A DNA stretch of 63,265 nt, counting the filler. It is 4 parts of 4 records of this genome, joined end to end, with 100 filler letters (N's around TTAATTAATTAA, not from the genome) between each part and the next. Parts side by side here need not be neighbours in the genome. Positions count along the whole stretch, not along the records: positions 43,188 to 63,265 come from SRR22947725_1396; 3 more parts are not named here. One strand, given 5' to 3'. The translations under genes and the position numbers were made by a program. Within the stretch, counting starts at the first letter, position 1. Every line of letters starts with the position of its first letter. This document shows positions 46,381 to 53,172 of this stretch, one piece after another. The notes under the pieces were generated by a model that did not search any database, had not been told where the DNA came from, and saw only the letters and a list, made by a program, of their open reading frames with translations.

Positions 46381-47161
46381 ATTAGGAATACTAGGATGGC
46401 CGTTAACTACAACCTATTCACCTCTGATACATAATAAATTATTTGAACTCTCTGGGTTGGAGGGAAGTTATCAAATAATTAAACAAGAAGAAATAAACTC
46501 TCAAATAATATCGGAAATAAATAATGACTTATTAGGCTACAACATCACAATCCCCCATAAAGAAAAAATTATATATCTTCAAAAGTCAGCGATACTAAGT
46601 GCAAGTGTCAAAGATATTGGGGCTTGTAATACGGTATTGAATAGAAACTCAAAAATATATTTATTCAACACTGATTTTTCAGGATTTAAAACATTTTTAA
46701 ACTTGATTCAATATGATTTTTGTAAAAAGTCTGTTTTGATACTTGGATCTGGAGGAAGCGCTAAAGCAATTGCTTACACATTAAAATTACAAAACATAAA
46801 TTATTTCATAGCGAGTAGGCATTCAAATGAAAATACTATTTCATATAATGAAATAGTTAAAATTGGCTCGGACATTGATTTAGTAATTAATACTACACCT
46901 GTAGGCATGCCTCCATTTAATCATGGAGAACTACCAATAAAGTGGAACAATTTACCTAATATAAAAACAGTAATCAATCTTGGGTATGGGTCTAAAAATA
47001 CCTTTCTAAATCAATTTGATGACTCCATTGCTAAATATGATGGATTGGGCATGCTTGTGTGCCAAGCTATAGAGTCATTTAATATATGGACCTCTGCAGG
47101 CTTAAATACAAGTAGAATTTATGGTGAAGTGATAAAGGAATTGGAAAATATAGATGATTAG
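46373..47161 (+). CDS. aroE: Shikimate dehydrogenase
   Basis: SPLIHN, NITIPHKE, NTD..G, LGSGGSA, NTTPVGM, GLGML..QA; start ATG 46373. Confidence 0.92.
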   Translation: MNKLGILGWPLTTTYSPLIHNKLFELSGLEGSYQIIKQEEINSQIISEINNDLLGYNITIPHKEKIIYLQKSAILSASVKDIGACNTVLNRNSKIYLFNTDFSGFKTFLNLIQYDFCKKSVLILGSGGSAKAIAYTLKLQNINYFIASRHSNENTISYNEIVKIGSDIDLVINTTPVGMPPFNHGELPIKWNNLPNIKTVINLGYGSKNTFLNQFDDSIAKYDGLGMLVCQAIESFNIWTSAGLNTSRIYGEVIKELENIDD

Positions 47162-48323
47162 ATATTTAACAGCGGGTGAAAGCCACGGTCCAGAGTTGAC
47201 AGGTATTTTAGAGGGTATACCAGCAGGGTTCAATGTTTCAAAAAAATATATAGATGACTTTTTACAGAGGAGACAAAAAGGACTTGGCTCTGGTGGCAGA
47301 ATGAATATTGAGCAAGATGAAGTTTTGATAACTTCGGGTATAGTCAACGGAGTGACTACTGGAGCACCAATTGCCATAAGAATCTTAAATAAAGACTGGA
47401 AAAATTGGAAAGATAAAGAAATTGAGCCATACATCGTTCCTAGGCCTGGACATGCTGATTTAGTAGGAACAGCAAAATACGATCATGAAGATATAAGATT
47501 TGTTCTAGAAAGAGCCAGTGCTAGAGAAACTGCAATGCGAGCAGCCATAGGGGCAATAACAGCAGAAATTCTTGAGTCACTTGGAATCAATATCGTAGGA
47601 TATGTTACTGCAATTGGAGATATTTCTTATCAAGGAGATCCAAAAGTGAAAATTGACAAACTAAAAGTTATGCATTCTGAAGTTGGCTGTCCTGATCCTG
47701 TAACAAGCAAAATGATGGAGGATAAGATTCTTTTAGCTAGAAAAAATAAAGATACTTTAGGTGGTGCTATAACTTGTATAGCTTCAGGGGTTCCAGCAAC
47801 TTTAGGAAGTTTTGTACATTGGGACAAAAAACTAGATGCAATATTAGCAAAGCAATTTATGTCTGTTCAAAGCGTAAAAGCAGTTGAAATTGGTAAGGGT
47901 GTTGAAGTGTCAAAAAAATATGGTACGGAAGTACAAGACCAGTACTCAATTGATGAAAAAAAAATAAATAAGATTTCAAATAACCTAGGAGGTTTTGAAG
48001 GGGGAATGTCTAACGGTGAAGATATTTACATTACTGCATACCTAAAACCAATTAGTACTACACTAACTCCCATAAATAGTATTGATTTGGTAACAAAAAC
48101 TGAAACTGAAACAGTTTATGAACGCTCAGATACCTGCGCAGTACCACGAGCAATACCAATTTTTGAAGCAGTTATGGCTTTTGAAGTTCTTAATAATTTA
48201 CTACTCAAAACAGGTGGTGACAACAAGAAAGAGGTTTTAAAAAACTACAATAACATTCCAAGTCTTGAAGTTGATGATTTCAACATGAAAAATGAAGTAT
48301 GGAATATGAATTATGAAAACTAA
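47154..48323 (+). CDS. aroC: Chorismate synthase
   Basis: TAGESHG, PRPGHADL, ERASARETA, GGFEGGMSNG, ERSD. Confidence 0.96.
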   Translation: MIRYLTAGESHGPELTGILEGIPAGFNVSKKYIDDFLQRRQKGLGSGGRMNIEQDEVLITSGIVNGVTTGAPIAIRILNKDWKNWKDKEIEPYIVPRPGHADLVGTAKYDHEDIRFVLERASARETAMRAAIGAITAEILESLGINIVGYVTAIGDISYQGDPKVKIDKLKVMHSEVGCPDPVTSKMMEDKILLARKNKDTLGGAITCIASGVPATLGSFVHWDKKLDAILAKQFMSVQSVKAVEIGKGVEVSKKYGTEVQDQYSIDEKKINKISNNLGGFEGGMSNGEDIYITAYLKPISTTLTPINSIDLVTKTETETVYERSDTCAVPRAIPIFEAVMAFEVLNNLLLKTGGDNKKEVLKNYNNIPSLEVDDFNMKNEVWNMNYEN

Positions 48324-48819
48324 CAAGACGGCTTACGTTGTTGGTTTCATGGGTTCTGGAAAGTCGTCTATTTTGAAAGTTATAAACCAATCGACAAATA
48401 TTAACACTGTTGATTTAGATGAACTAGTTGTAAAAGATAACGGAGAAAGCATTCTAAAAATATTTAGAAACCACGGTGAAGAATATTTTAGAAAAAAAGA
48501 AGAAGAGTCTTTTTATAAAATTAAGAATATGCCAGAAACAATAATATTTCTGGGCGGGGGCTCGCTAGTTACAGATTCAATCAGAACCACTATCCAACAA
48601 TCTGAAAATTCTTTTTACTTACAAAATTCATTTGATAATTTGTGGGAAAACATTAAAAACAGTGACAGACCATTAGTAACTACAGGAAAAAAAAATGTAA
48701 TGAAAATTTATAATGAAAGACTAGATAGTTACGAACAATGTAAAAATACTATAGATATGTCAAATAGTAGTTTAAAAGAAGCATCTAAGTTAATAGTGAG
48801 TCAGCTAGGGTGGATTTAA
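48313..48819 (+). CDS. aroK: Shikimate kinase
   Basis: GFMGSGKS, DLD, GEEYFR, LGGG, RPL. Confidence 0.92.
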   Translation: MKTNKTAYVVGFMGSGKSSILKVINQSTNINTVDLDELVVKDNGESILKIFRNHGEEYFRKKEEESFYKIKNMPETIIFLGGGSLVTDSIRTTIQQSENSFYLQNSFDNLWENIKNSDRPLVTTGKKNVMKIYNERLDSYEQCKNTIDMSNSSLKEASKLIVSQLGWI

Positions 48820-49829
48820 AATTGAATAATTCAAAAGTAGTGTATTTTGAAAACTTAAATGAATTAATAACATACTGTGGGGAAAAGACTAGCAATAACT
48901 CACACCATACGTTTATTGACAAGAATGTTTTATTAAAATTTCCGGTTTTTAAAGAAGCCGGTATGAATATGAGTCCTCTAGATATCAGCGAAGATGAGAA
49001 AAATTTAGCAACAGTTTCTAGTTTGTGGAATATTATGTTTGAAAAATCTCTCCAAAGAAGTTCTATCGTATTTTCCATCGGAGGAGGGGTGATTTCAGAT
49101 GAAGTTGGCTTTGCTGCCAGCACTTATAAAAGGGGGACCAAGCTAATAAACATTCCGACAACTCTTTTGTCAATGGTTGATGCTGCACATGGAGGTAAGA
49201 ATGGAATTAATAATGAATACGGAAAGAATCAAATAGGAACATTTATGATGCCAAACGAAGTATTAATTTGCAGTGAATTTTTGAATGAGCTGCCCGAAAA
49301 AGAAATAAAAACAGGTTTAATTGAGTTAATAAAAGCTGGCTTTTTGAAAAATCCTCAACTGGTTGAAAAAGTTTATGACGTAAACCTAAATCAAATTGAT
49401 ACAAGTCTTATAAGCACAGCAGTAGAAATTAAAAATGAAATTGTTAGCAAAGACTTCGCAGAGTCATCAGAGAGAATGTTATTAAATTTTGGACATACGA
49501 TTGGACACCTAATTGAGGTTGACTCTAATTATAATATTTCACATGGTGAAGCAGTTGCTATAGGAATGTTAAAGTCTATGAAAATCTCTGAAAATATTTT
49601 TGGACTAGATTCAAACGTAGCTGAAAAATTTGGATTTTTCTTAGAAAAATTAGAACTACATAAAGACTACAAATTTAATAGTGACACTGACCTCCTTAAA
49701 GAACTTTTAATAAATGATAAAAAAACGAATAATACTGAAATAAAGTATGTTCTTTTAAAAGATATTGGAGAGCCAATTTTGATTGATTATGACTTGATGG
49801 AATTACTAAATGAGATTACTAATGATTAA
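48810..49829 (+). CDS. aroB: 3-dehydroquinate synthase
   Basis: GGGVISD, PTTLLSMVDA..GGKNG, KNQIGTF, LNFGHT.GH, HGEAVAIG. Confidence 0.93.
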   Translation: MDLKLNNSKVVYFENLNELITYCGEKTSNNSHHTFIDKNVLLKFPVFKEAGMNMSPLDISEDEKNLATVSSLWNIMFEKSLQRSSIVFSIGGGVISDEVGFAASTYKRGTKLINIPTTLLSMVDAAHGGKNGINNEYGKNQIGTFMMPNEVLICSEFLNELPEKEIKTGLIELIKAGFLKNPQLVEKVYDVNLNQIDTSLISTAVEIKNEIVSKDFAESSERMLLNFGHTIGHLIEVDSNYNISHGEAVAIGMLKSMKISENIFGLDSNVAEKFGFFLEKLELHKDYKFNSDTDLLKELLINDKKTNNTEIKYVLLKDIGEPILIDYDLMELLNEITND

Positions 49830-50253
49830 AATCTTGATAATTAATGGTCCAAATCTTAATATGCTCGGATTAAGAGAGATAAACCAATATGGAAAAATAT
49901 CTTATGACGATTTATGCAACCTAATCAAAACACATTCAAAAAATAAAGTTCAAATCGAATTTTATCAATCAAATATTGAAGGAGAGATTGTGTCTAGAGT
50001 TCAAGAAATCATTGATCAAGATATAGATGCTTTAATTGTAAATCCTGGAGCCTACACTCATACAAGTATTGCAATTAGAGATGCATTAGCGATCTTGAAT
50101 ATTCCAAAAATAGAAGTACATTTATCAGACATTAACAGCCGGGAAAATTTCAGAAAGATAAATTTAATTACAGATTTATGTGAATTGAGTATTATCGGGA
50201 AAGGTGCCAACGGCTATATTGAGGCAATAGAGTATTTGTATGAAAAAAATTAA
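49822..50253 (+). CDS. aroQ: Type II 3-dehydroquinate dehydratase
   Basis: INGPNLNMLG.RE...YG, QSN.EG, NPGAYTHTSIAIRDA, EVHLS. Confidence 0.94.
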   Translation: MIKILIINGPNLNMLGLREINQYGKISYDDLCNLIKTHSKNKVQIEFYQSNIEGEIVSRVQEIIDQDIDALIVNPGAYTHTSIAIRDALAILNIPKIEVHLSDINSRENFRKINLITDLCELSIIGKGANGYIEAIEYLYEKN

Positions 50254-51058
50254 AAATATTTACTATCAGGGTTCCGAAGGATCTTATTCAGAATCTGTAT
50301 TAAGAAGCTATTTCCCACAGAATAGCTATATTCCTTGTCAAACATTTAAAGAAGTTGTTACACAGGCAGGGGATGAAAATTATGGCTTACTCCCAGTTGA
50401 AAACTCACTTGTAGGAACCGTAGTTGATTCATATGAGAACTTGATAGAAAGTGAATTATCAGTTTATGGAGAATTTAAGAAAAAGATAACTCATGCTCTC
50501 ATCGGGTTAAAAGACTCAAAAATAGAAATAATTGATAAGGTCATTTCGCACCCTCAAGCTCTTCAGCAGTGCAGTAACTATCTTCAGACCATAAATGTAG
50601 AGTTACAGCCTGTATTCGATACTGCCGGGAGTGTATTAAGTTTACTTGATGAAAACTCTAATACTACTGCTGGTATTGCTGGTGAGCACTTTGAAGATGA
50701 TGAAAGATTTAATATTTTGAAAAAAAATATTTCAAATCATGTAGAAAACTACACTCGTTTTTTTCTTATTGGAAACAATGATCCTTTTCTAGATGTAGTT
50801 AAAGAAAAAAGATCAGCAGTATTAATAGCTGACGATAAGCCTGGGTCTTTGTTAGCCTCATTAAAAATATTTGAAGAGACGAATGTTAATCTCACAAAAC
50901 TTGAATCGAGACCAATAATTGGCAGTCCATGGGAATATAAATTCTATGTTGACTATCAAAATTCAGTTGATGACATCGACATTAAGTTACAAAATAAACT
51001 GAAGGATGTTACAAAAAAATTTAAGATAATAGGAAAATACGGTACAGTTAATCTTTAA
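50240..51058 (+). CDS. pheA: Prephenate dehydratase with ACT domain (no chorismate mutase domain)
   Basis: PVENS..G, SHPQALQQC, NYTRF, NLTKLESRP. Confidence 0.93.
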   Translation: MKKIKNIYYQGSEGSYSESVLRSYFPQNSYIPCQTFKEVVTQAGDENYGLLPVENSLVGTVVDSYENLIESELSVYGEFKKKITHALIGLKDSKIEIIDKVISHPQALQQCSNYLQTINVELQPVFDTAGSVLSLLDENSNTTAGIAGEHFEDDERFNILKKNISNHVENYTRFFLIGNNDPFLDVVKEKRSAVLIADDKPGSLLASLKIFEETNVNLTKLESRPIIGSPWEYKFYVDYQNSVDDIDIKLQNKLKDVTKKFKIIGKYGTVNL

Positions 51059-52121
51059 ATTTCCAACTAGAACCAGATTCACTATCTTCGATTGCTATAT
51101 TCAGATTATCAAGTAAGTCACGAATCTCATCAGACTCGCTATATTTTTTTTCATTTCTAAATTTATTCCTTAACTCAATAATTCCTTGAACTGTACTATC
51201 GAAAAGTGTGGTGTAGGTCTGATTATTTTTCAATTCAAGATTTAATTTTGCTACTTCTTTTTTAAGTATGTTTAAATCAGTTTCATTACGCTTACCTTGC
51301 TTATTGCTTAAGTCAGTTTTTTCTGGCCTAGGGAGAATATCTTGTAAATCACCTAAAGGATACTCAATTCCTCCTCTAAAACTAGTTTGTCCCAACTTTG
51401 TAATTGTTGTAACCTCACCAATGCCTTGCACAGTAAAGGTCTTTTTAGATCCATCTATTACTAGGGCAGTATGTTCATCTATTCCCAATATATTCGTATA
51501 TTCAGAGGATAGAAGATTATTCAATCTGTTCCTTCCTATATAGCTACAACTAGTGTCATGATTCCCACCCTCCTGATTATTAAAATGTGGGACAATTGTA
51601 CAACTCAAACCATATAGATCTAATAAATTTAGACCTTTCTCCCAATAAGGATCCATACCAACTTTATATATCTCGTATACAGGAATTGACTTTTGCCCAA
51701 GGACAGAAGCTGCAGCACTTGAAAATACTGCATATTTTCCATTTCTAAGATGATTGGAAATAATGAGGGGAATTTCTGAATTTATCCATGTCTTAGATGC
51801 ATAGCTTGGACTACCTGGACCAGAAAATATGAAATTTGAATTTTTTAACTCTTCAAGCATTTCAAAATAATCAACAGAATCTATCGAGTCTTGAGTTCTT
51901 AAACTAGCTAGTTTGATATCGATTTGGACGCTTTTTTTAAAAAAAAGTTTTAATTTATCAACCAATACATCTGCATTTTCTTGAAAACCAAATGGAGTAT
52001 CAATTAAATATGCATTAACTTGGTTATCAATTTGCTTCACAAAATCTCTATGAACAGAGACAAGATTTGGACTTGTTTCTCCTGAGCCCATAATCGCAAT
52101 ACTGCCTTTAGCTACCTCCAT
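51048..52121 (-). CDS. Peptidase S51/cyanophycinase-like hydrolase fused to a CysRS-type C-terminal anticodon-binding domain
   Basis: MGSGE, FSGPGSP, FSSAAA, VPHF, LGIDEHTA; C-terminus ELRNKFRNEKKYSESDEIRDLL..L.I.IED...GSSW. Confidence 0.7.
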   Translation of the reverse strand: MEVAKGSIAIMGSGETSPNLVSVHRDFVKQIDNQVNAYLIDTPFGFQENADVLVDKLKLFFKKSVQIDIKLASLRTQDSIDSVDYFEMLEELKNSNFIFSGPGSPSYASKTWINSEIPLIISNHLRNGKYAVFSSAAASVLGQKSIPVYEIYKVGMDPYWEKGLNLLDLYGLSCTIVPHFNNQEGGNHDTSCSYIGRNRLNNLLSSEYTNILGIDEHTALVIDGSKKTFTVQGIGEVTTITKLGQTSFRGGIEYPLGDLQDILPRPEKTDLSNKQGKRNETDLNILKKEVAKLNLELKNNQTYTTLFDSTVQGIIELRNKFRNEKKYSESDEIRDLLDNLNIAIEDSESGSSWKFKD

Positions 52122-52173
52122 TTAATCTATTATAGGGATTTATTGAATCTTCTATAAAATGTATAATTAAACT

Positions 52174-53172
52174 ATGTTGAAGATTGTTATTAAGTTACTA
52201 GAAGTTTTTACTTTAGATTACATTCCAAGACTTCCTATATCTGTAAGAACAAGATTATTTTATATTATTCTTCCATTGAGAAAATATAGAGACAAAATTC
52301 GAATGAACAAACCAGTTAACCAAGTTACATATCAGGAGAGAGTTGAGTTTGCAAGAGTGTCAAGAGAAGGAATTAATTATTCCGGTATAAAACTAAATGA
52401 ATTCCATCCTGAAGTTGAGATTACAAAAATCACAAATGCGAAATTTAACACCCATAAACTTACTCCAAAGAATCCAAAAAGTGATGTTTATGGAATTTAT
52501 TTTCATGGAGGCGGTTATTACTCTGGAAGTGTAATCTCTCATAAAAATCTTCTATCTCAAATTACTGCTTCAACAAATATGGTGACATATATATTTGAGT
52601 ACAGACTTTCACCTGAAGCAGTTTTTCCAAGCGCTCATGATGATTCAAAAGAAATAGTCACATTTCTAGATAATCTTGAAGTAGGTAAAGATTCTATCTG
52701 GATTGGAGAGTCAGCTGGTGGTGGACTTGCTACTGGATTATGTGTGGATGACTCATTTAAACTAAGACCGAAGAAACTTATTTTGATGTCTCCCTGGCTT
52801 GATTTATCTAATAAGAATAAAGACAGAAATTATCTCAAAAATAAAGACATCCTAATTCTCCTTGATGGCATGCATATGATGGGAGAGTACTATGCAGGAG
52901 AACATGACCCTTCAAATCCAATTCTTTCTCCAGTTTTTGCTGATTTTAAAGAATTTCCAGATGTGTTAATTCAGGTTTGCTCCAACGAGCTACTTTATAA
53001 CGATGCAGTTGAATTTAGTAAAAAACTAGAGACCATAAATAGTAATTATGAATTACAGGTTTGGGATAACTTATGGCATGCTTGGCAATTTTTTCCTATA
53101 AAAGAAGCCGAAGATGCTCGAGAAAAAATAGTAAAGTTTGTTAACAGTGAGTCTTATTCCTCGTCTAAGTGA
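52174..53172 (+). CDS. Alpha/beta hydrolase (HSL-family esterase)
   Basis: FHGGGY, YRLSPE..FP, GESAGG, SPWLD, H.WQ. Confidence 0.88.
   Translation: MLKIVIKLLEVFTLDYIPRLPISVRTRLFYIILPLRKYRDKIRMNKPVNQVTYQERVEFARVSREGINYSGIKLNEFHPEVEITKITNAKFNTHKLTPKNPKSDVYGIYFHGGGYYSGSVISHKNLLSQITASTNMVTYIFEYRLSPEAVFPSAHDDSKEIVTFLDNLEVGKDSIWIGESAGGGLATGLCVDDSFKLRPKKLILMSPWLDLSNKNKDRNYLKNKDILILLDGMHMMGEYYAGEHDPSNPILSPVFADFKEFPDVLIQVCSNELLYNDAVEFSKKLETINSNYELQVWDNLWHAWQFFPIKEAEDAREKIVKFVNSESYSSSK

Follow-up and report, generated by a model that had tools for sequence, protein, structure and literature searches.

The fusion gene and its surroundings

The window (the whole stretch of 63,265 nucleotides that was analysed) carries a gene on its minus strand at 51048-52121 that starts with ATG and encodes a protein of 357 amino acids. 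At its 3' end the gene shares 11 bp with a convergent gene for prephenate dehydratase. On the other side, a 52-bp AT-rich spacer separates it from a divergent gene for an HSL-type esterase, and both promoters are presumably located in this spacer. Contigs from 14 RNA-library runs cover the fusion gene, with DNA carry-over possible in these runs; the RNA-library contigs from two studies break at the spacer, a weak hint. The features of the locus are as follows.

51048-52121, minus strand: whole gene, 357 codons plus the stop codon at 51048-51050
51336-52121, minus strand: peptidase-S51/class-I glutamine-amidotransferase-like hydrolase domain, residues 1-262 (Pfam, AF2 and structure matches)
51717-51719, minus strand: Ser135, predicted nucleophile, second serine of FSSAAA, aligned with the SAG serine of PDB 6nqc
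51657-51683, minus strand: PVYEIYKVG, residues 147-155, invariant family-specific motif missing from the stand-alone 6nqc
51585-51587, minus strand: His179 of the predicted triad, in VPHF
51552-51581, minus strand: NNQEGGNHDT, residues 181-190, family-specific loop directly after the predicted catalytic histidine; the segment is deleted in 6nqc
51474-51476, minus strand: Glu216 of the predicted triad, in GIDEHT
51279-51335, minus strand: linker, residues 263-281, low confidence (pLDDT 59-81)
51153-51278, minus strand: long helix, residues 282-323 (AF2; CysRS profile and cysS model matches)
51051-51212, minus strand: CysRS-type C-terminal anticodon-binding domain (CysS_C), residues 304-357 (profile and structure matches)
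51120-51158, minus strand: R322, Y327, D331 and R334, counterparts of E. coli CysRS R427, W432, D436 and R439 by profile alignment
52122-52173, no strand: AT-rich spacer of 52 bp
52174-53172, plus strand: HSL-type esterase gene

The earlier note had described this gene as a fusion of an S51-like hydrolase with a CysRS anticodon-binding-like domain, and both halves were verified by profile and by structure. The AF2 model has a pLDDT of 93.2, with 93 for the hydrolase domain; the linker of low confidence is far longer in high-GC orthologues. Judged by eye, the N-terminus gives no clear sign of a signal peptide or of a hydrophobic segment, as would fit a substrate in the cytoplasm. The predicted homodimer score was 0.18, against a mark of 0.42.

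The N-terminal domain is a divergent S51 hydrolase

Residues 9-227 matched Pfam Peptidase_S51 (PF03575) with 27.9 bits (cut-off 23.9). At E<=0.01 this model recognised just 39 of 79 family members, which identifies the family as a divergent S51 branch. Structure searches confirmed the PepE/cyanophycinase fold of the domain. Six S51 structures matched the whole model with Z scores of 24.0 (6nqc), 22.4 (7uqv), 21.7 (3en0), 20.8 (7ffp), 17.0 and 16.8, and the next match fell to 7.7; Foldseek gave E values of 2e-14 to 7.6e-7 against S51 structures. The cyanophycinase equivalog (NCBIfam TIGR02069) was rejected at 26.6 bits against a cut-off of 126.6.

The motifs FSSAAA, VPHF and GIDEHT, read from the sequence in the earlier note, were confirmed in the N-terminal part, at residues 133, 177 and 213, respectively. 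Mapped by alignment with the corresponding motifs of 6nqc, they supply a predicted Ser135-His179-Glu216 triad that is intact and conserved: among 251 long members, the serine is present in 250, the histidine in all 251 and the glutamate in 248. The hydrolase domain is therefore not assigned to MccG (S51 clade V, microcin C immunity), which has Asp as the third residue; judging from its motifs, it is apparently active. Both PVYEIYKVG and NxEGGxHDT adjoin the predicted triad and were found in 269 of 269 aligned rows. Being invariant in the family yet missing from 6nqc, they suggest a substrate that differs from those of ordinary S51 peptidases.

The C-terminal module derives from cysteinyl-tRNA synthetase

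The segment from residue ~282 to residue 357 shares homology with the helical/anticodon-binding module at the C-terminus of CysRS. As a single sequence, the protein matched Pfam CysS_C (PF23493) over residues 308-351 with 13.7 bits, under the cut-off of 23, and retrieved the PDB CysRS chains 3tqo (E 1.2e-4) and 6ujd (E 1.9e-4). The signal was much stronger at the family level: a 79-member profile searched against PDB matched five CysRS sequences with E values of 2.6e-15 to 1.3e-11, over ~130 profile positions corresponding to E. coli CysRS 332-460, and 63 of the 79 members matched CysS_C at E<=0.01 (best 1.6e-11). This family-level match far exceeds chance.

In the structure comparisons, CysRS (3sp1_B) was the best non-S51 match of the whole model (Z 7.7, rmsd 1.6 Å over 48 residues, model residues 304-356). 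When the C-terminal piece was searched alone, CysRS again came first, both in Foldseek (1u0b_B, E 9.7e-3, rmsd 1.4 Å) and in VIA-align (3sp1_B, Z 8.1, rmsd 1.3 Å). The VIA-align runners-up were unrelated helical proteins less than 1 Z unit lower, and for so small a modelled domain the support from structure taken by itself is modest. The resemblance of the last ~50 residues to the CysRS C-terminus, which the earlier note had offered for checking by profile and structure, was thus recovered by both. On the profile alignment, the long helix 282-323 is a leftover of the CysRS helical-bundle region, with its end forming part of the anticodon-binding domain.

The protein is not a full CysRS. The NCBIfam cysS model (TIGR00435) scored 25.8 bits against a cut-off of 340; its positions 379-464 of 466 aligned with residues 271-354, and nothing before position 379 matched anywhere in the protein. 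The strings HIGH and KMSKS are not present in the 357 residues, in agreement with the earlier statement that the synthetase core is lacking.

A report on E. coli CysRS gives R427, W432, D436 and R439 as residues that contact the GCA anticodon (PMC13449415). Their counterparts are strongly retained among 222 aligned C-domains: the position of R322 has Arg in 220 and Lys in 2, that of Y327 is aromatic in 221, and those of D331 and R334 are Asp and Arg in 222/222. That these residues have been kept in several phyla speaks for continued selection on RNA reading.

Distribution of the fusion and genomic context

The fusion family is large and conserved. It was found in at least 572 species genomes, which belong to Actinomycetota, Chloroflexota, Dormibacterota and Desulfobacterales-type MAGs, and 307 clusters matched it at E<=1e-30. 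In the genus of the window, 23 of 25 streamlined genomes (0.7-1.1 Mb) carry the fusion; the frame is open and of equal length in these 23, with 51-100% identity, and one match (G211) has an in-frame TAA. Genome G001, used as a stand-in for the organism of the window, encodes an identical fusion protein together with a separate full cysS of 466 aa (433.9 bits) that has its own C-terminus; the fusion gene is therefore not a broken or split cysS. Word-limited searches for longer proteins retrieved no full CysRS-S51 fusion, which is weak evidence, and a literature search returned no description of an S51-CysRS fusion.

Two expectations of the earlier note fared less well. Annotation as cysS proved to be mostly unsupported: the entries encountered were called 'cyanophycinase-like exopeptidase' or 'hypothetical protein', and only a single Atlas cluster, a weak match with a score of 0.77, had been auto-named 'Cysteinyl-tRNA synthetase family protein'. 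A link to selenocysteine was not borne out either. Of the 201 Actinomycetota genomes sampled, 144 contain selD (TIGR00476), with 7/13 among those bearing the fusion compared with 137/188 among those free of it, so the two are not associated. A simple scan of the window for genes with an in-frame TGA gave four candidates, none convincing, and in the one that was translated the TGA precedes the probable start of the gene. The only tRNA encoded in the window is tRNA-Leu.

The only recurrent partner of the fusion is an alpha/beta hydrolase, encoded directly upstream in 37 of 80 loci. The two genes are translationally coupled in many loci and are fused in some relatives (P0306 and P0309). The partner is missing from the clade of the window (0/10 Actinomarina-type loci), and a search of G001 gave only 23-bit matches. 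The hydrolase is of a generic type and would suit the catabolism of small molecules or peptides no less than tRNA chemistry, a point against the reading preferred below. Relatives of ~1130-1224 aa combine the same two domains with a multi-pass membrane region and a SCO1/SenC thiol-oxidoreductase domain. The 10 Actinomarina-type loci share synteny that includes shikimate genes, pheA, the HSL esterase, CbiO/CbiQ and a Fur-like gene, and no conserved operon or co-directional partner was found across them. Genes for ZnuA and ABC proteins lie convergently downstream in 13 loci; this adjacency was judged to be synteny among relatives, and a zinc link was dismissed.

A role in mycothiol synthesis in place of MshC was also considered. 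The fusion itself is not MshC: the MshC model (TIGR03447) matched only the true cysS in G001, with 243.6 against 485.1 bits. Neither MshC nor MshD was found in G001, in which other contigs encode a deacetylase resembling MshB, with 178.5 bits against 224, as well as two GT4 enzymes, with 181 and 175 bits against 462.5. Within the Actinomycetota sample, the fusion occurs in 0/14 genomes with canonical MshC, and 9 of the 13 fusion-bearing genomes encode an additional CysRS paralogue that resembles MshC (391-432 bits). No mycothiol-type genes occur among the annotated recurrent neighbour clusters of the 80 loci. Replacement of MshC by the fusion was rejected as a general rule in Actinomycetota.

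A tRNA-Cys-directed enzyme as the preferred reading

The fusion protein probably acts on or through tRNA-Cys. The reading that we prefer, with a probability of roughly 0.45, is a serine acyl-hydrolase or acyl-transferase docked on tRNA-Cys. The protein would be an enzyme of two domains that works in the cytoplasm. Its C-terminal module would dock on the anticodon arm of tRNA-Cys and read G34-C35-A36 through the CysRS-type Arg/aromatic/Asp/Arg set. Ser135-His179-Glu216 of the S51 domain would then attack an acyl bond on the docked tRNA to form a seryl acyl-enzyme; the simplest candidate for this bond is the 3'-terminal aminoacyl ester. Resolution by water would amount to deacylation, that is, quality control or regulated discharge of tRNA-Cys; resolution by an acceptor amine or hydroxyl would amount to tRNA-dependent transfer. 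In this scheme we infer that tRNA-Cys is bound, that the substrate is an acyl-tRNA, and how the acyl-enzyme is resolved. The tRNA-targeted hydrolase proposed in the earlier note therefore stands in part: the conserved anticodon-contact residues make a tRNA-Cys-directed enzyme the most natural reading, whereas a trans-editing deacylase or peptidyl-tRNA esterase is one candidate role among several, as hydrolysis, acyl transfer and tRNA sensing agree equally well with the evidence.

Several considerations weigh against individual steps, and the S51 family offers one precedent in favour. The anticodon and the acceptor end of an L-shaped tRNA are ~75 Å apart, and the domains of this streamlined protein are tethered by only the 19-residue linker and one 42-residue helix; Ser135 may therefore not reach the acceptor end while the C-domain holds the anticodon. 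The conserved Arg and Asp could be structural, a consideration against tRNA reading. A deacylase would also discharge correct Cys-tRNA-Cys unless it selected the acyl group, and we know of no natural mischarged tRNA-Cys species in these organisms. Among S51 enzymes a precedent for aminoacyl-nucleotide bonds is provided by MccG, described as cleaving the isoaspartyl-nucleotide payload of microcin C; PepE, CphB and MccG are described as acting on aspartyl/isoaspartyl, not cysteinyl, bonds (PMC9239234).

The more specific proposal that Ser135 takes cysteine from Cys-tRNA-Cys as an acyl-enzyme and hands it to an acceptor amine or hydroxyl is a long shot, and the evidence does not favour transfer over hydrolysis. 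If true, the enzyme would be a tRNA-dependent aminoacyl transferase of a new kind, which makes a metabolite, low-molecular-weight thiol or lipid that bears cysteine and needs no ATP to do so. The frequently adjacent alpha/beta hydrolase would reverse or process the product as ErdH does for ErdS, and in the relatives fused to SCO1 and a membrane region the reaction would take place at the membrane.

Alternative explanations

The CysRS tail might no longer read tRNA-Cys and might instead serve in oligomerisation, protein docking or binding of another RNA, appended to an S51 hydrolase of ordinary type. We consider this unlikely, although of the alternatives it deserves the most weight. The C-domain is only ~50 residues long, its single-sequence CysS_C score stays below the cut-off, unrelated helical proteins match it nearly as well in structure, and a tRNA enzyme would hardly be expected to be tethered to a membrane region and SCO1/SenC, as happens in some relatives. 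It is countered by the anticodon-contact positions, kept in 220-222 of 222 members across phyla, and by the longer orthologues, which keep the CysRS helical-bundle region (E. coli 332-460) and thereby exceed the needs of a dimerisation tag. These same contacts, which agree with the substrate reading, agree equally well with an explanation to which we give slightly less credence, in which tRNA-Cys is a signal and not a substrate: the C-domain would bind tRNA-Cys, perhaps preferring the uncharged form, and would switch or localise an S51 peptidase/amidase according to cysteine supply. The enzyme would act on a small soluble substrate; candidates include dipeptides of the Asp type, conjugates with an isoaspartyl bond and peptides that contain Cys. 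The characterised S51 enzymes are described as using small aspartyl/isoaspartyl substrates (PMC9239234), the recurrent partner is another hydrolase of small-molecule type, coupled or fused, and in the predicted structure the short tether may not span the tRNA. The family-specific loops adjoining the triad, however, suggest a special substrate and not a generic dipeptide, and the partner hydrolase is lacking in the clade of the window. To our knowledge, no anticodon domain of an aaRS has been described as an allosteric sensor acting on a peptidase.

That the gene is a remnant or an artefact, such as a decayed paralogue of cysS or MshC or two misjoined genes, can be put aside almost entirely. 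Only the partial cysS match would suggest it. The frame stays open at equal length throughout the 23 genus genomes, the TAA in G211 aside; the large number of clusters, the confident AF2 model, the presence of the gene stretch in contigs of the 14 RNA-library runs and the complete cysS elsewhere in G001 all count against it.

Significance and comparison with known systems

Free-standing pieces of aaRSs have repeatedly proved to be new tRNA-dependent enzymes, including editing factors, amino-acid transferases and cofactor ligases. The present fusion joins a predicted reader of one tRNA's anticodon to a peptidase fold. It occurs in several phyla, and free-living marine organisms with some of the smallest genomes have retained it. 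Its substrate would reveal either a quality-control step for tRNA-Cys or an ATP-independent, non-protein use of Cys-tRNA. The proposal is directly testable with the four predicted RNA-contact residues and the one nucleophile.

The nearest solved structure to the N-domain is 6nqc ('peptidase from an acI-B1 Actinobacterium'/'cyanophycinase-like exopeptidase'), for which the literature search returned no published function. It aligns over 232 residues with an rmsd of 2.6 Å and 22% identity (Z 24.0; profile E 3.7e-12) and shares with the fusion the motif GSGE, the serine nucleophile, and the histidine and glutamate within PHFN and GIDExT, respectively. Unlike the fusion, it is a stand-alone protein of 259 aa that has no CysRS-like tail and neither the PVYEIYKVG motif nor the NxEGGxHDT loop. 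PepE, CphB/CphE and MccG have the fold in common with the fusion N-domain (Z 17-22) and, in contrast to it, carry no tRNA-binding domain. A Ser-His-acid triad is found in both PepE, where it is given as S120/H157/E192, and the fusion N-domain; the MccG clade is described as having Asp in third place, whereas the fusion family has Glu (PMC9239234). That paper surveys 3,097 S51 proteins, and its main text never uses the word 'cysteinyl'.

The CysRS C-terminal module is homologous to the last ~85 residues of the fusion (~130 in longer orthologues), which keep counterparts of CysRS R427, W432, D436, R439, D451 and W458. In contrast to CysRS, the fusion has no Rossmann catalytic core, HIGH, KMSKS or stem-contact domain. 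AlaX, YbaK and DTD are free-standing trans-editing factors. As far as we know, the factors of this type described so far arose from the editing domains of aaRSs and in most cases have no anticodon-binding domain; the catalytic domain of the fusion is, by contrast, a peptidase fold otherwise not linked to tRNA. A common logic links the fusion to these factors and to ErdS, described as AspRS joined to an aminoacyl-transferase domain, with the gene for a neighbouring hydrolase, ErdH, conserved at the locus. In the fusion, a synthetase-derived tRNA handle would steer a non-synthetase active site to one tRNA, and an alpha/beta hydrolase gene likewise lies directly upstream in 37/80 loci. ErdS keeps a whole synthetase and charges its own tRNA, whereas the fusion keeps the anticodon module only.

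An S51 hydrolase domain with a conserved catalytic triad

The three motifs that the earlier note had picked out are present in the fusion protein, with FSSAAA at residue 133, VPHF at 177 and GIDEHT at 213, and Pfam Peptidase_S51 matched residues 9-227 with 27.9 bits (cut-off 23.9). An AlphaFold2 model built from a 79-sequence alignment (mean pLDDT 93.2, pTM 0.86) was compared with 48,161 representative PDB chains. The six top structural matches of the whole model were all S51: the stand-alone peptidase 6nqc (Z 24.0), pseudo-CphB 7uqv (22.4), cyanophycinase 3en0 (21.7), dipeptidase E 7ffp (20.8), 3l4e (17.0) and 6a4t (16.8), after which Z fell to 7.7; Foldseek gave a concordant fold assignment. 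The 6nqc motifs that hold the nucleophile, the His and the Glu line up with Ser135, His179 and Glu216. Conservation was assessed in 269 sequences, the query and P0001-P0268, many of which are close relatives; among the 251 members of at least 330 residues, Ser135 was retained in 250, His179 in 251 and Glu216 in 248. Many other positions were likewise invariant, among them GSGE (12-15), F46, N49 and GPGSP (101-105). Two segments adjoining the triad, PVYEIYKVG (147-155) and NxEGGxHDT (182-190), occur in all 269 rows, whereas 6nqc has neither. The cyanophycinase equivalog model scored only 26.6 bits, far short of the required 126.6.

The nearest available genome (G001) also encodes a second, distant S51 paralogue without the CysRS-like tail (G001:C4:25482-25904; a 226-residue frame, E 2e-6, 26% identity to fusion residues 8-150).

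A C-terminal domain derived from CysRS

With the single sequence, CysS_C (Pfam) matched residues 308-351 at 13.7 bits, below the cut-off of 23, and PDB CysRS chains matched at E 1.2e-4 and 1.9e-4; these matches are weak, all pointing in the same direction. The synthetase core is missing, as the earlier note had stated: the cysS model matched only over positions 379-464 of 466, and the HIGH and KMSKS strings are absent. At the level of sequence profiles the CysRS match is unambiguous, the family profile recovering 8qhp (E 2.6e-15), 3tqo (5.2e-12) and E. coli 1li5/1u0b and 6ujd (1.3e-11), with CysS_C matched by 63 of 79 family members at E<=0.01. Longer orthologues match E. coli CysRS over residues ~332-460, so that the helical bundle is covered besides the terminal alpha/beta domain. 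The best non-S51 structural match of the whole model was CysRS 3sp1_B (Z 7.7, rmsd 1.6 Å over 48 residues, model 304-356). When residues 270-357 were folded separately (10-row alignment, pLDDT 79.5), the top match was 1u0b_B by Foldseek (E 9.7e-3, rmsd 1.4 Å) and 3sp1_B by VIA-align (Z 8.1, rmsd 1.3 Å), the sole match with Z>=8. Structural support alone is modest because generic helical matches trail within one Z unit; profile and predicted structure combined argue for CysRS homology of the tail.

The available text of a 2026 engineering paper takes R427, W432, D436 and R439 from PDB 1U0B as anticodon-binding positions of E. coli CysRS, with R427 hydrogen-bonding G34 (PMC13449415). Their counterparts in the profile alignment are R322, Y327, D331 and R334, and R423, D451 and W458 align to R318, D346 and W353. 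Among the 222 of 251 long members with an aligned C-domain, R318, D331 and R334 were conserved in 222, R322 in 220 (Lys in the other 2), an aromatic residue at 327 in 221, D346 in 221 and W353 in 215. By eye, the motif was visible in 18 of the 29 rows lacking an aligned C-domain, some of them cut short, and not in 11.

Distribution and relation to genuine cysS

A word-indexed search was saturated, with at least 7,996 matches at E<=0.001 among the 8,000 candidates scored. An exhaustive search of 50%-identity representatives gave 1,106 at E<=0.001, of which 307 reached E<=1e-30; the majority of these match the fusion in two stretches. With one genome per species, relatives are encoded by at least 572 stretches; the best 80 of these include Candidatus Actinomarina/OCS155, the clade of the window (50-74% identity), together with Acidimicrobiia, Ilumatobacteraceae, Nanopelagicales, Dormibacterota, Chloroflexota classes and Desulfobacterales/deltaproteobacterial MAGs. 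Within the genus of the window the gene is present in 23 of 25 genomes (0.7-1.1 Mb; 51-100% identity), once with an in-frame TAA (G211); it is missing from two genomes, of 80% and 87% completeness. In the 201-genome Actinomycetota sample, strong matches (E<=1.5e-49) occurred in 13 genomes, and the remaining 42 matches were mostly true CysRS C-termini or weak S51 paralogues. These tallies take in eight unpublished genomes (G002, G019, G049, G083, G089, G121, G149, G175), none of which is among the 13 carriers. The CysRS-like motif ends all 11 orthologue frames examined from the sample.

The two domains are each known, and databases already tag both on fusion proteins. Our literature search found no paper on the S51-CysS_C combination or on 6nqc, and the word 'cysteinyl' is absent from the main text, as available, of a 3,097-protein S51 survey (PMC9239234). 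Mis-annotation as cysS had been expected; the public names encountered were instead 'hypothetical protein' and 'cyanophycinase-like exopeptidase', although one weakly matching Atlas cluster was auto-named 'Cysteinyl-tRNA synthetase family protein'.

G001, a 1.1-Mb genome that is 92% complete and has 38% of the 31-letter words sampled from the window, encodes a protein identical to the fusion. A split or decayed cysS is ruled out, as the same contig carries a separate full-length cysS ~100 kb away (466 residues, 433.9 bits, model positions 1-463). Searches for longer forms found no whole CysRS joined to S51, which is weak evidence. Nor does the fusion simply stand in for MshC in Actinomycetota, and annotated neighbour clusters included no mycothiol-type neighbour.

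A second CysRS-like paralogue was observed in 28 of the 201 sampled genomes (e.g. G063:C1:1952404-1953492), with open frames mostly of 376-490 residues and a few much longer. It matches MshC model positions ~14-385 at 360-432 bits, under the cut-off of 485 and well over true CysRS (~280-316), and its scores suggest a divergent group of MshC-type ligases that the NCBIfam cut-off would leave without a name.

The speculative link to selenocysteine gained no support: the presence of selD does not follow that of the fusion, and the window yielded no convincing Sec gene. Outside the window, selD of G001 (G001:C12:57276-58202, 357.9 bits) contains one in-frame TGA, which makes selenocysteine use probable in this streamlined actinobacterial genus; the same TGA occurs in selD of many other sampled Actinomycetota.

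Genomic context and longer fusions

The gene and its surroundings in the window are as follows.

Features around the fusion gene
47154-51058, aroC-aroK-aroB-aroQ-pheA, co-directional run just downstream of the fusion gene's 3' end
50240-51058, convergent with the fusion gene, prephenate dehydratase gene, overlapping its 3' end by 11 bp
51048-52121, minus strand, fusion ORF, 357 codons, ATG start
52174-53172, divergent from the fusion gene, HSL-type esterase gene, beyond a 52-bp AT-rich spacer

The aroC, aroK, aroB and aroQ names rest on visual reading of the ORF translations alone, that of pheA on Pfam PDT. An ORF at each aro-run position was found again in 10 of 10 Actinomarina-type loci, as unannotated clusters. 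CbiO, CbiQ and a Fur-family regulator lie past the esterase gene. Contigs from 14 RNA-library runs in at least nine studies cover 50900-52300; in two studies they end at 52101-52108 and restart at 52205-52232, skipping the spacer. This gap (52101-52232) hints weakly at separate divergent transcripts, with DNA carry-over possible. G+C is 0.38-0.44 over positions 1-28000 versus 0.30-0.37 over 28001-63265.

Clustering the ORFs of the 80 best-matching loci revealed a sole recurrent partner, an alpha/beta hydrolase of ~290 residues (Abhydrolase_1/6). In 37 of these loci it is the gene immediately upstream, read from the same strand. The gap is -48 to +20 nt in 18 measurable loci, often a 4-bp overlap, and is hidden by over-long ORF calls in the remaining 19. 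By similarity the partner is a generic esterase- or dehalogenase-like protein, scoring below the cut-off of every specific family. It occurs in 0 of 10 Actinomarina-type loci, and its best matches in G001 score only 23 bits. Further recurring neighbours are heterogeneous (convergent ZnuA/ABC, luciferase-like, beta-lactamase-like, QueG, MFS, DUF2017, DegV, methylmalonyl-CoA mutase). Two single-member clusters, P0306 (674 residues) and P0309 (704 residues), have the alpha/beta hydrolase fused to S51-CysS_C. Proteins of five clusters (1133-1224 residues; P0310-P0315, metagenomic) carry S51 and CysS_C, then a Pro-rich linker, a region with some seven hydrophobic windows and, at the C-terminus, a SCO1/SenC domain with a CxxxC motif, an architecture linking the S51/CysRS-like module to a membrane thiol/copper protein.

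Possible function

Family S51 consists of serine hydrolases whose triad is Ser-His-Glu/Asp; in the available text of the survey, its member MccG is described as cutting an isoaspartyl-nucleotide (PMC9239234). The main identity elements of tRNA-Cys are described as the GCA anticodon and discriminator U73 (PMC9976931). We propose, with a probability of about 0.45, that the fusion is a direct acyl-tRNA-Cys enzyme, a hydrolase or a transferase. The CysRS-like tail would bind the anticodon arm of tRNA-Cys, leaving the S51 domain to attack an acyl bond on the docked tRNA; water or an acceptor would then resolve the attack. In the model, a 42-residue helix (282-323) could serve as a spacer and may let the triad reach the 3' end of the tRNA.

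The tail, for all its conserved contact positions, might have been re-used for another role, which we regard as rather unlikely. A peptidase that senses tRNA through the same tail would accommodate these positions as well as a direct enzyme does, and is a slightly more doubtful reading than the re-used tail. That the fusion is an artefact is hardly credible, and a small remainder of probability is assigned to no reading.

For a direct acyl-tRNA-Cys enzyme, ErdS offers a parallel: its locus keeps a hydrolase gene, as far as the available text describes it (PMC13219428), much as 37 of the 80 fusion loci keep an alpha/beta hydrolase. Without deciding for the transferase branch, this parallel makes it worth testing.
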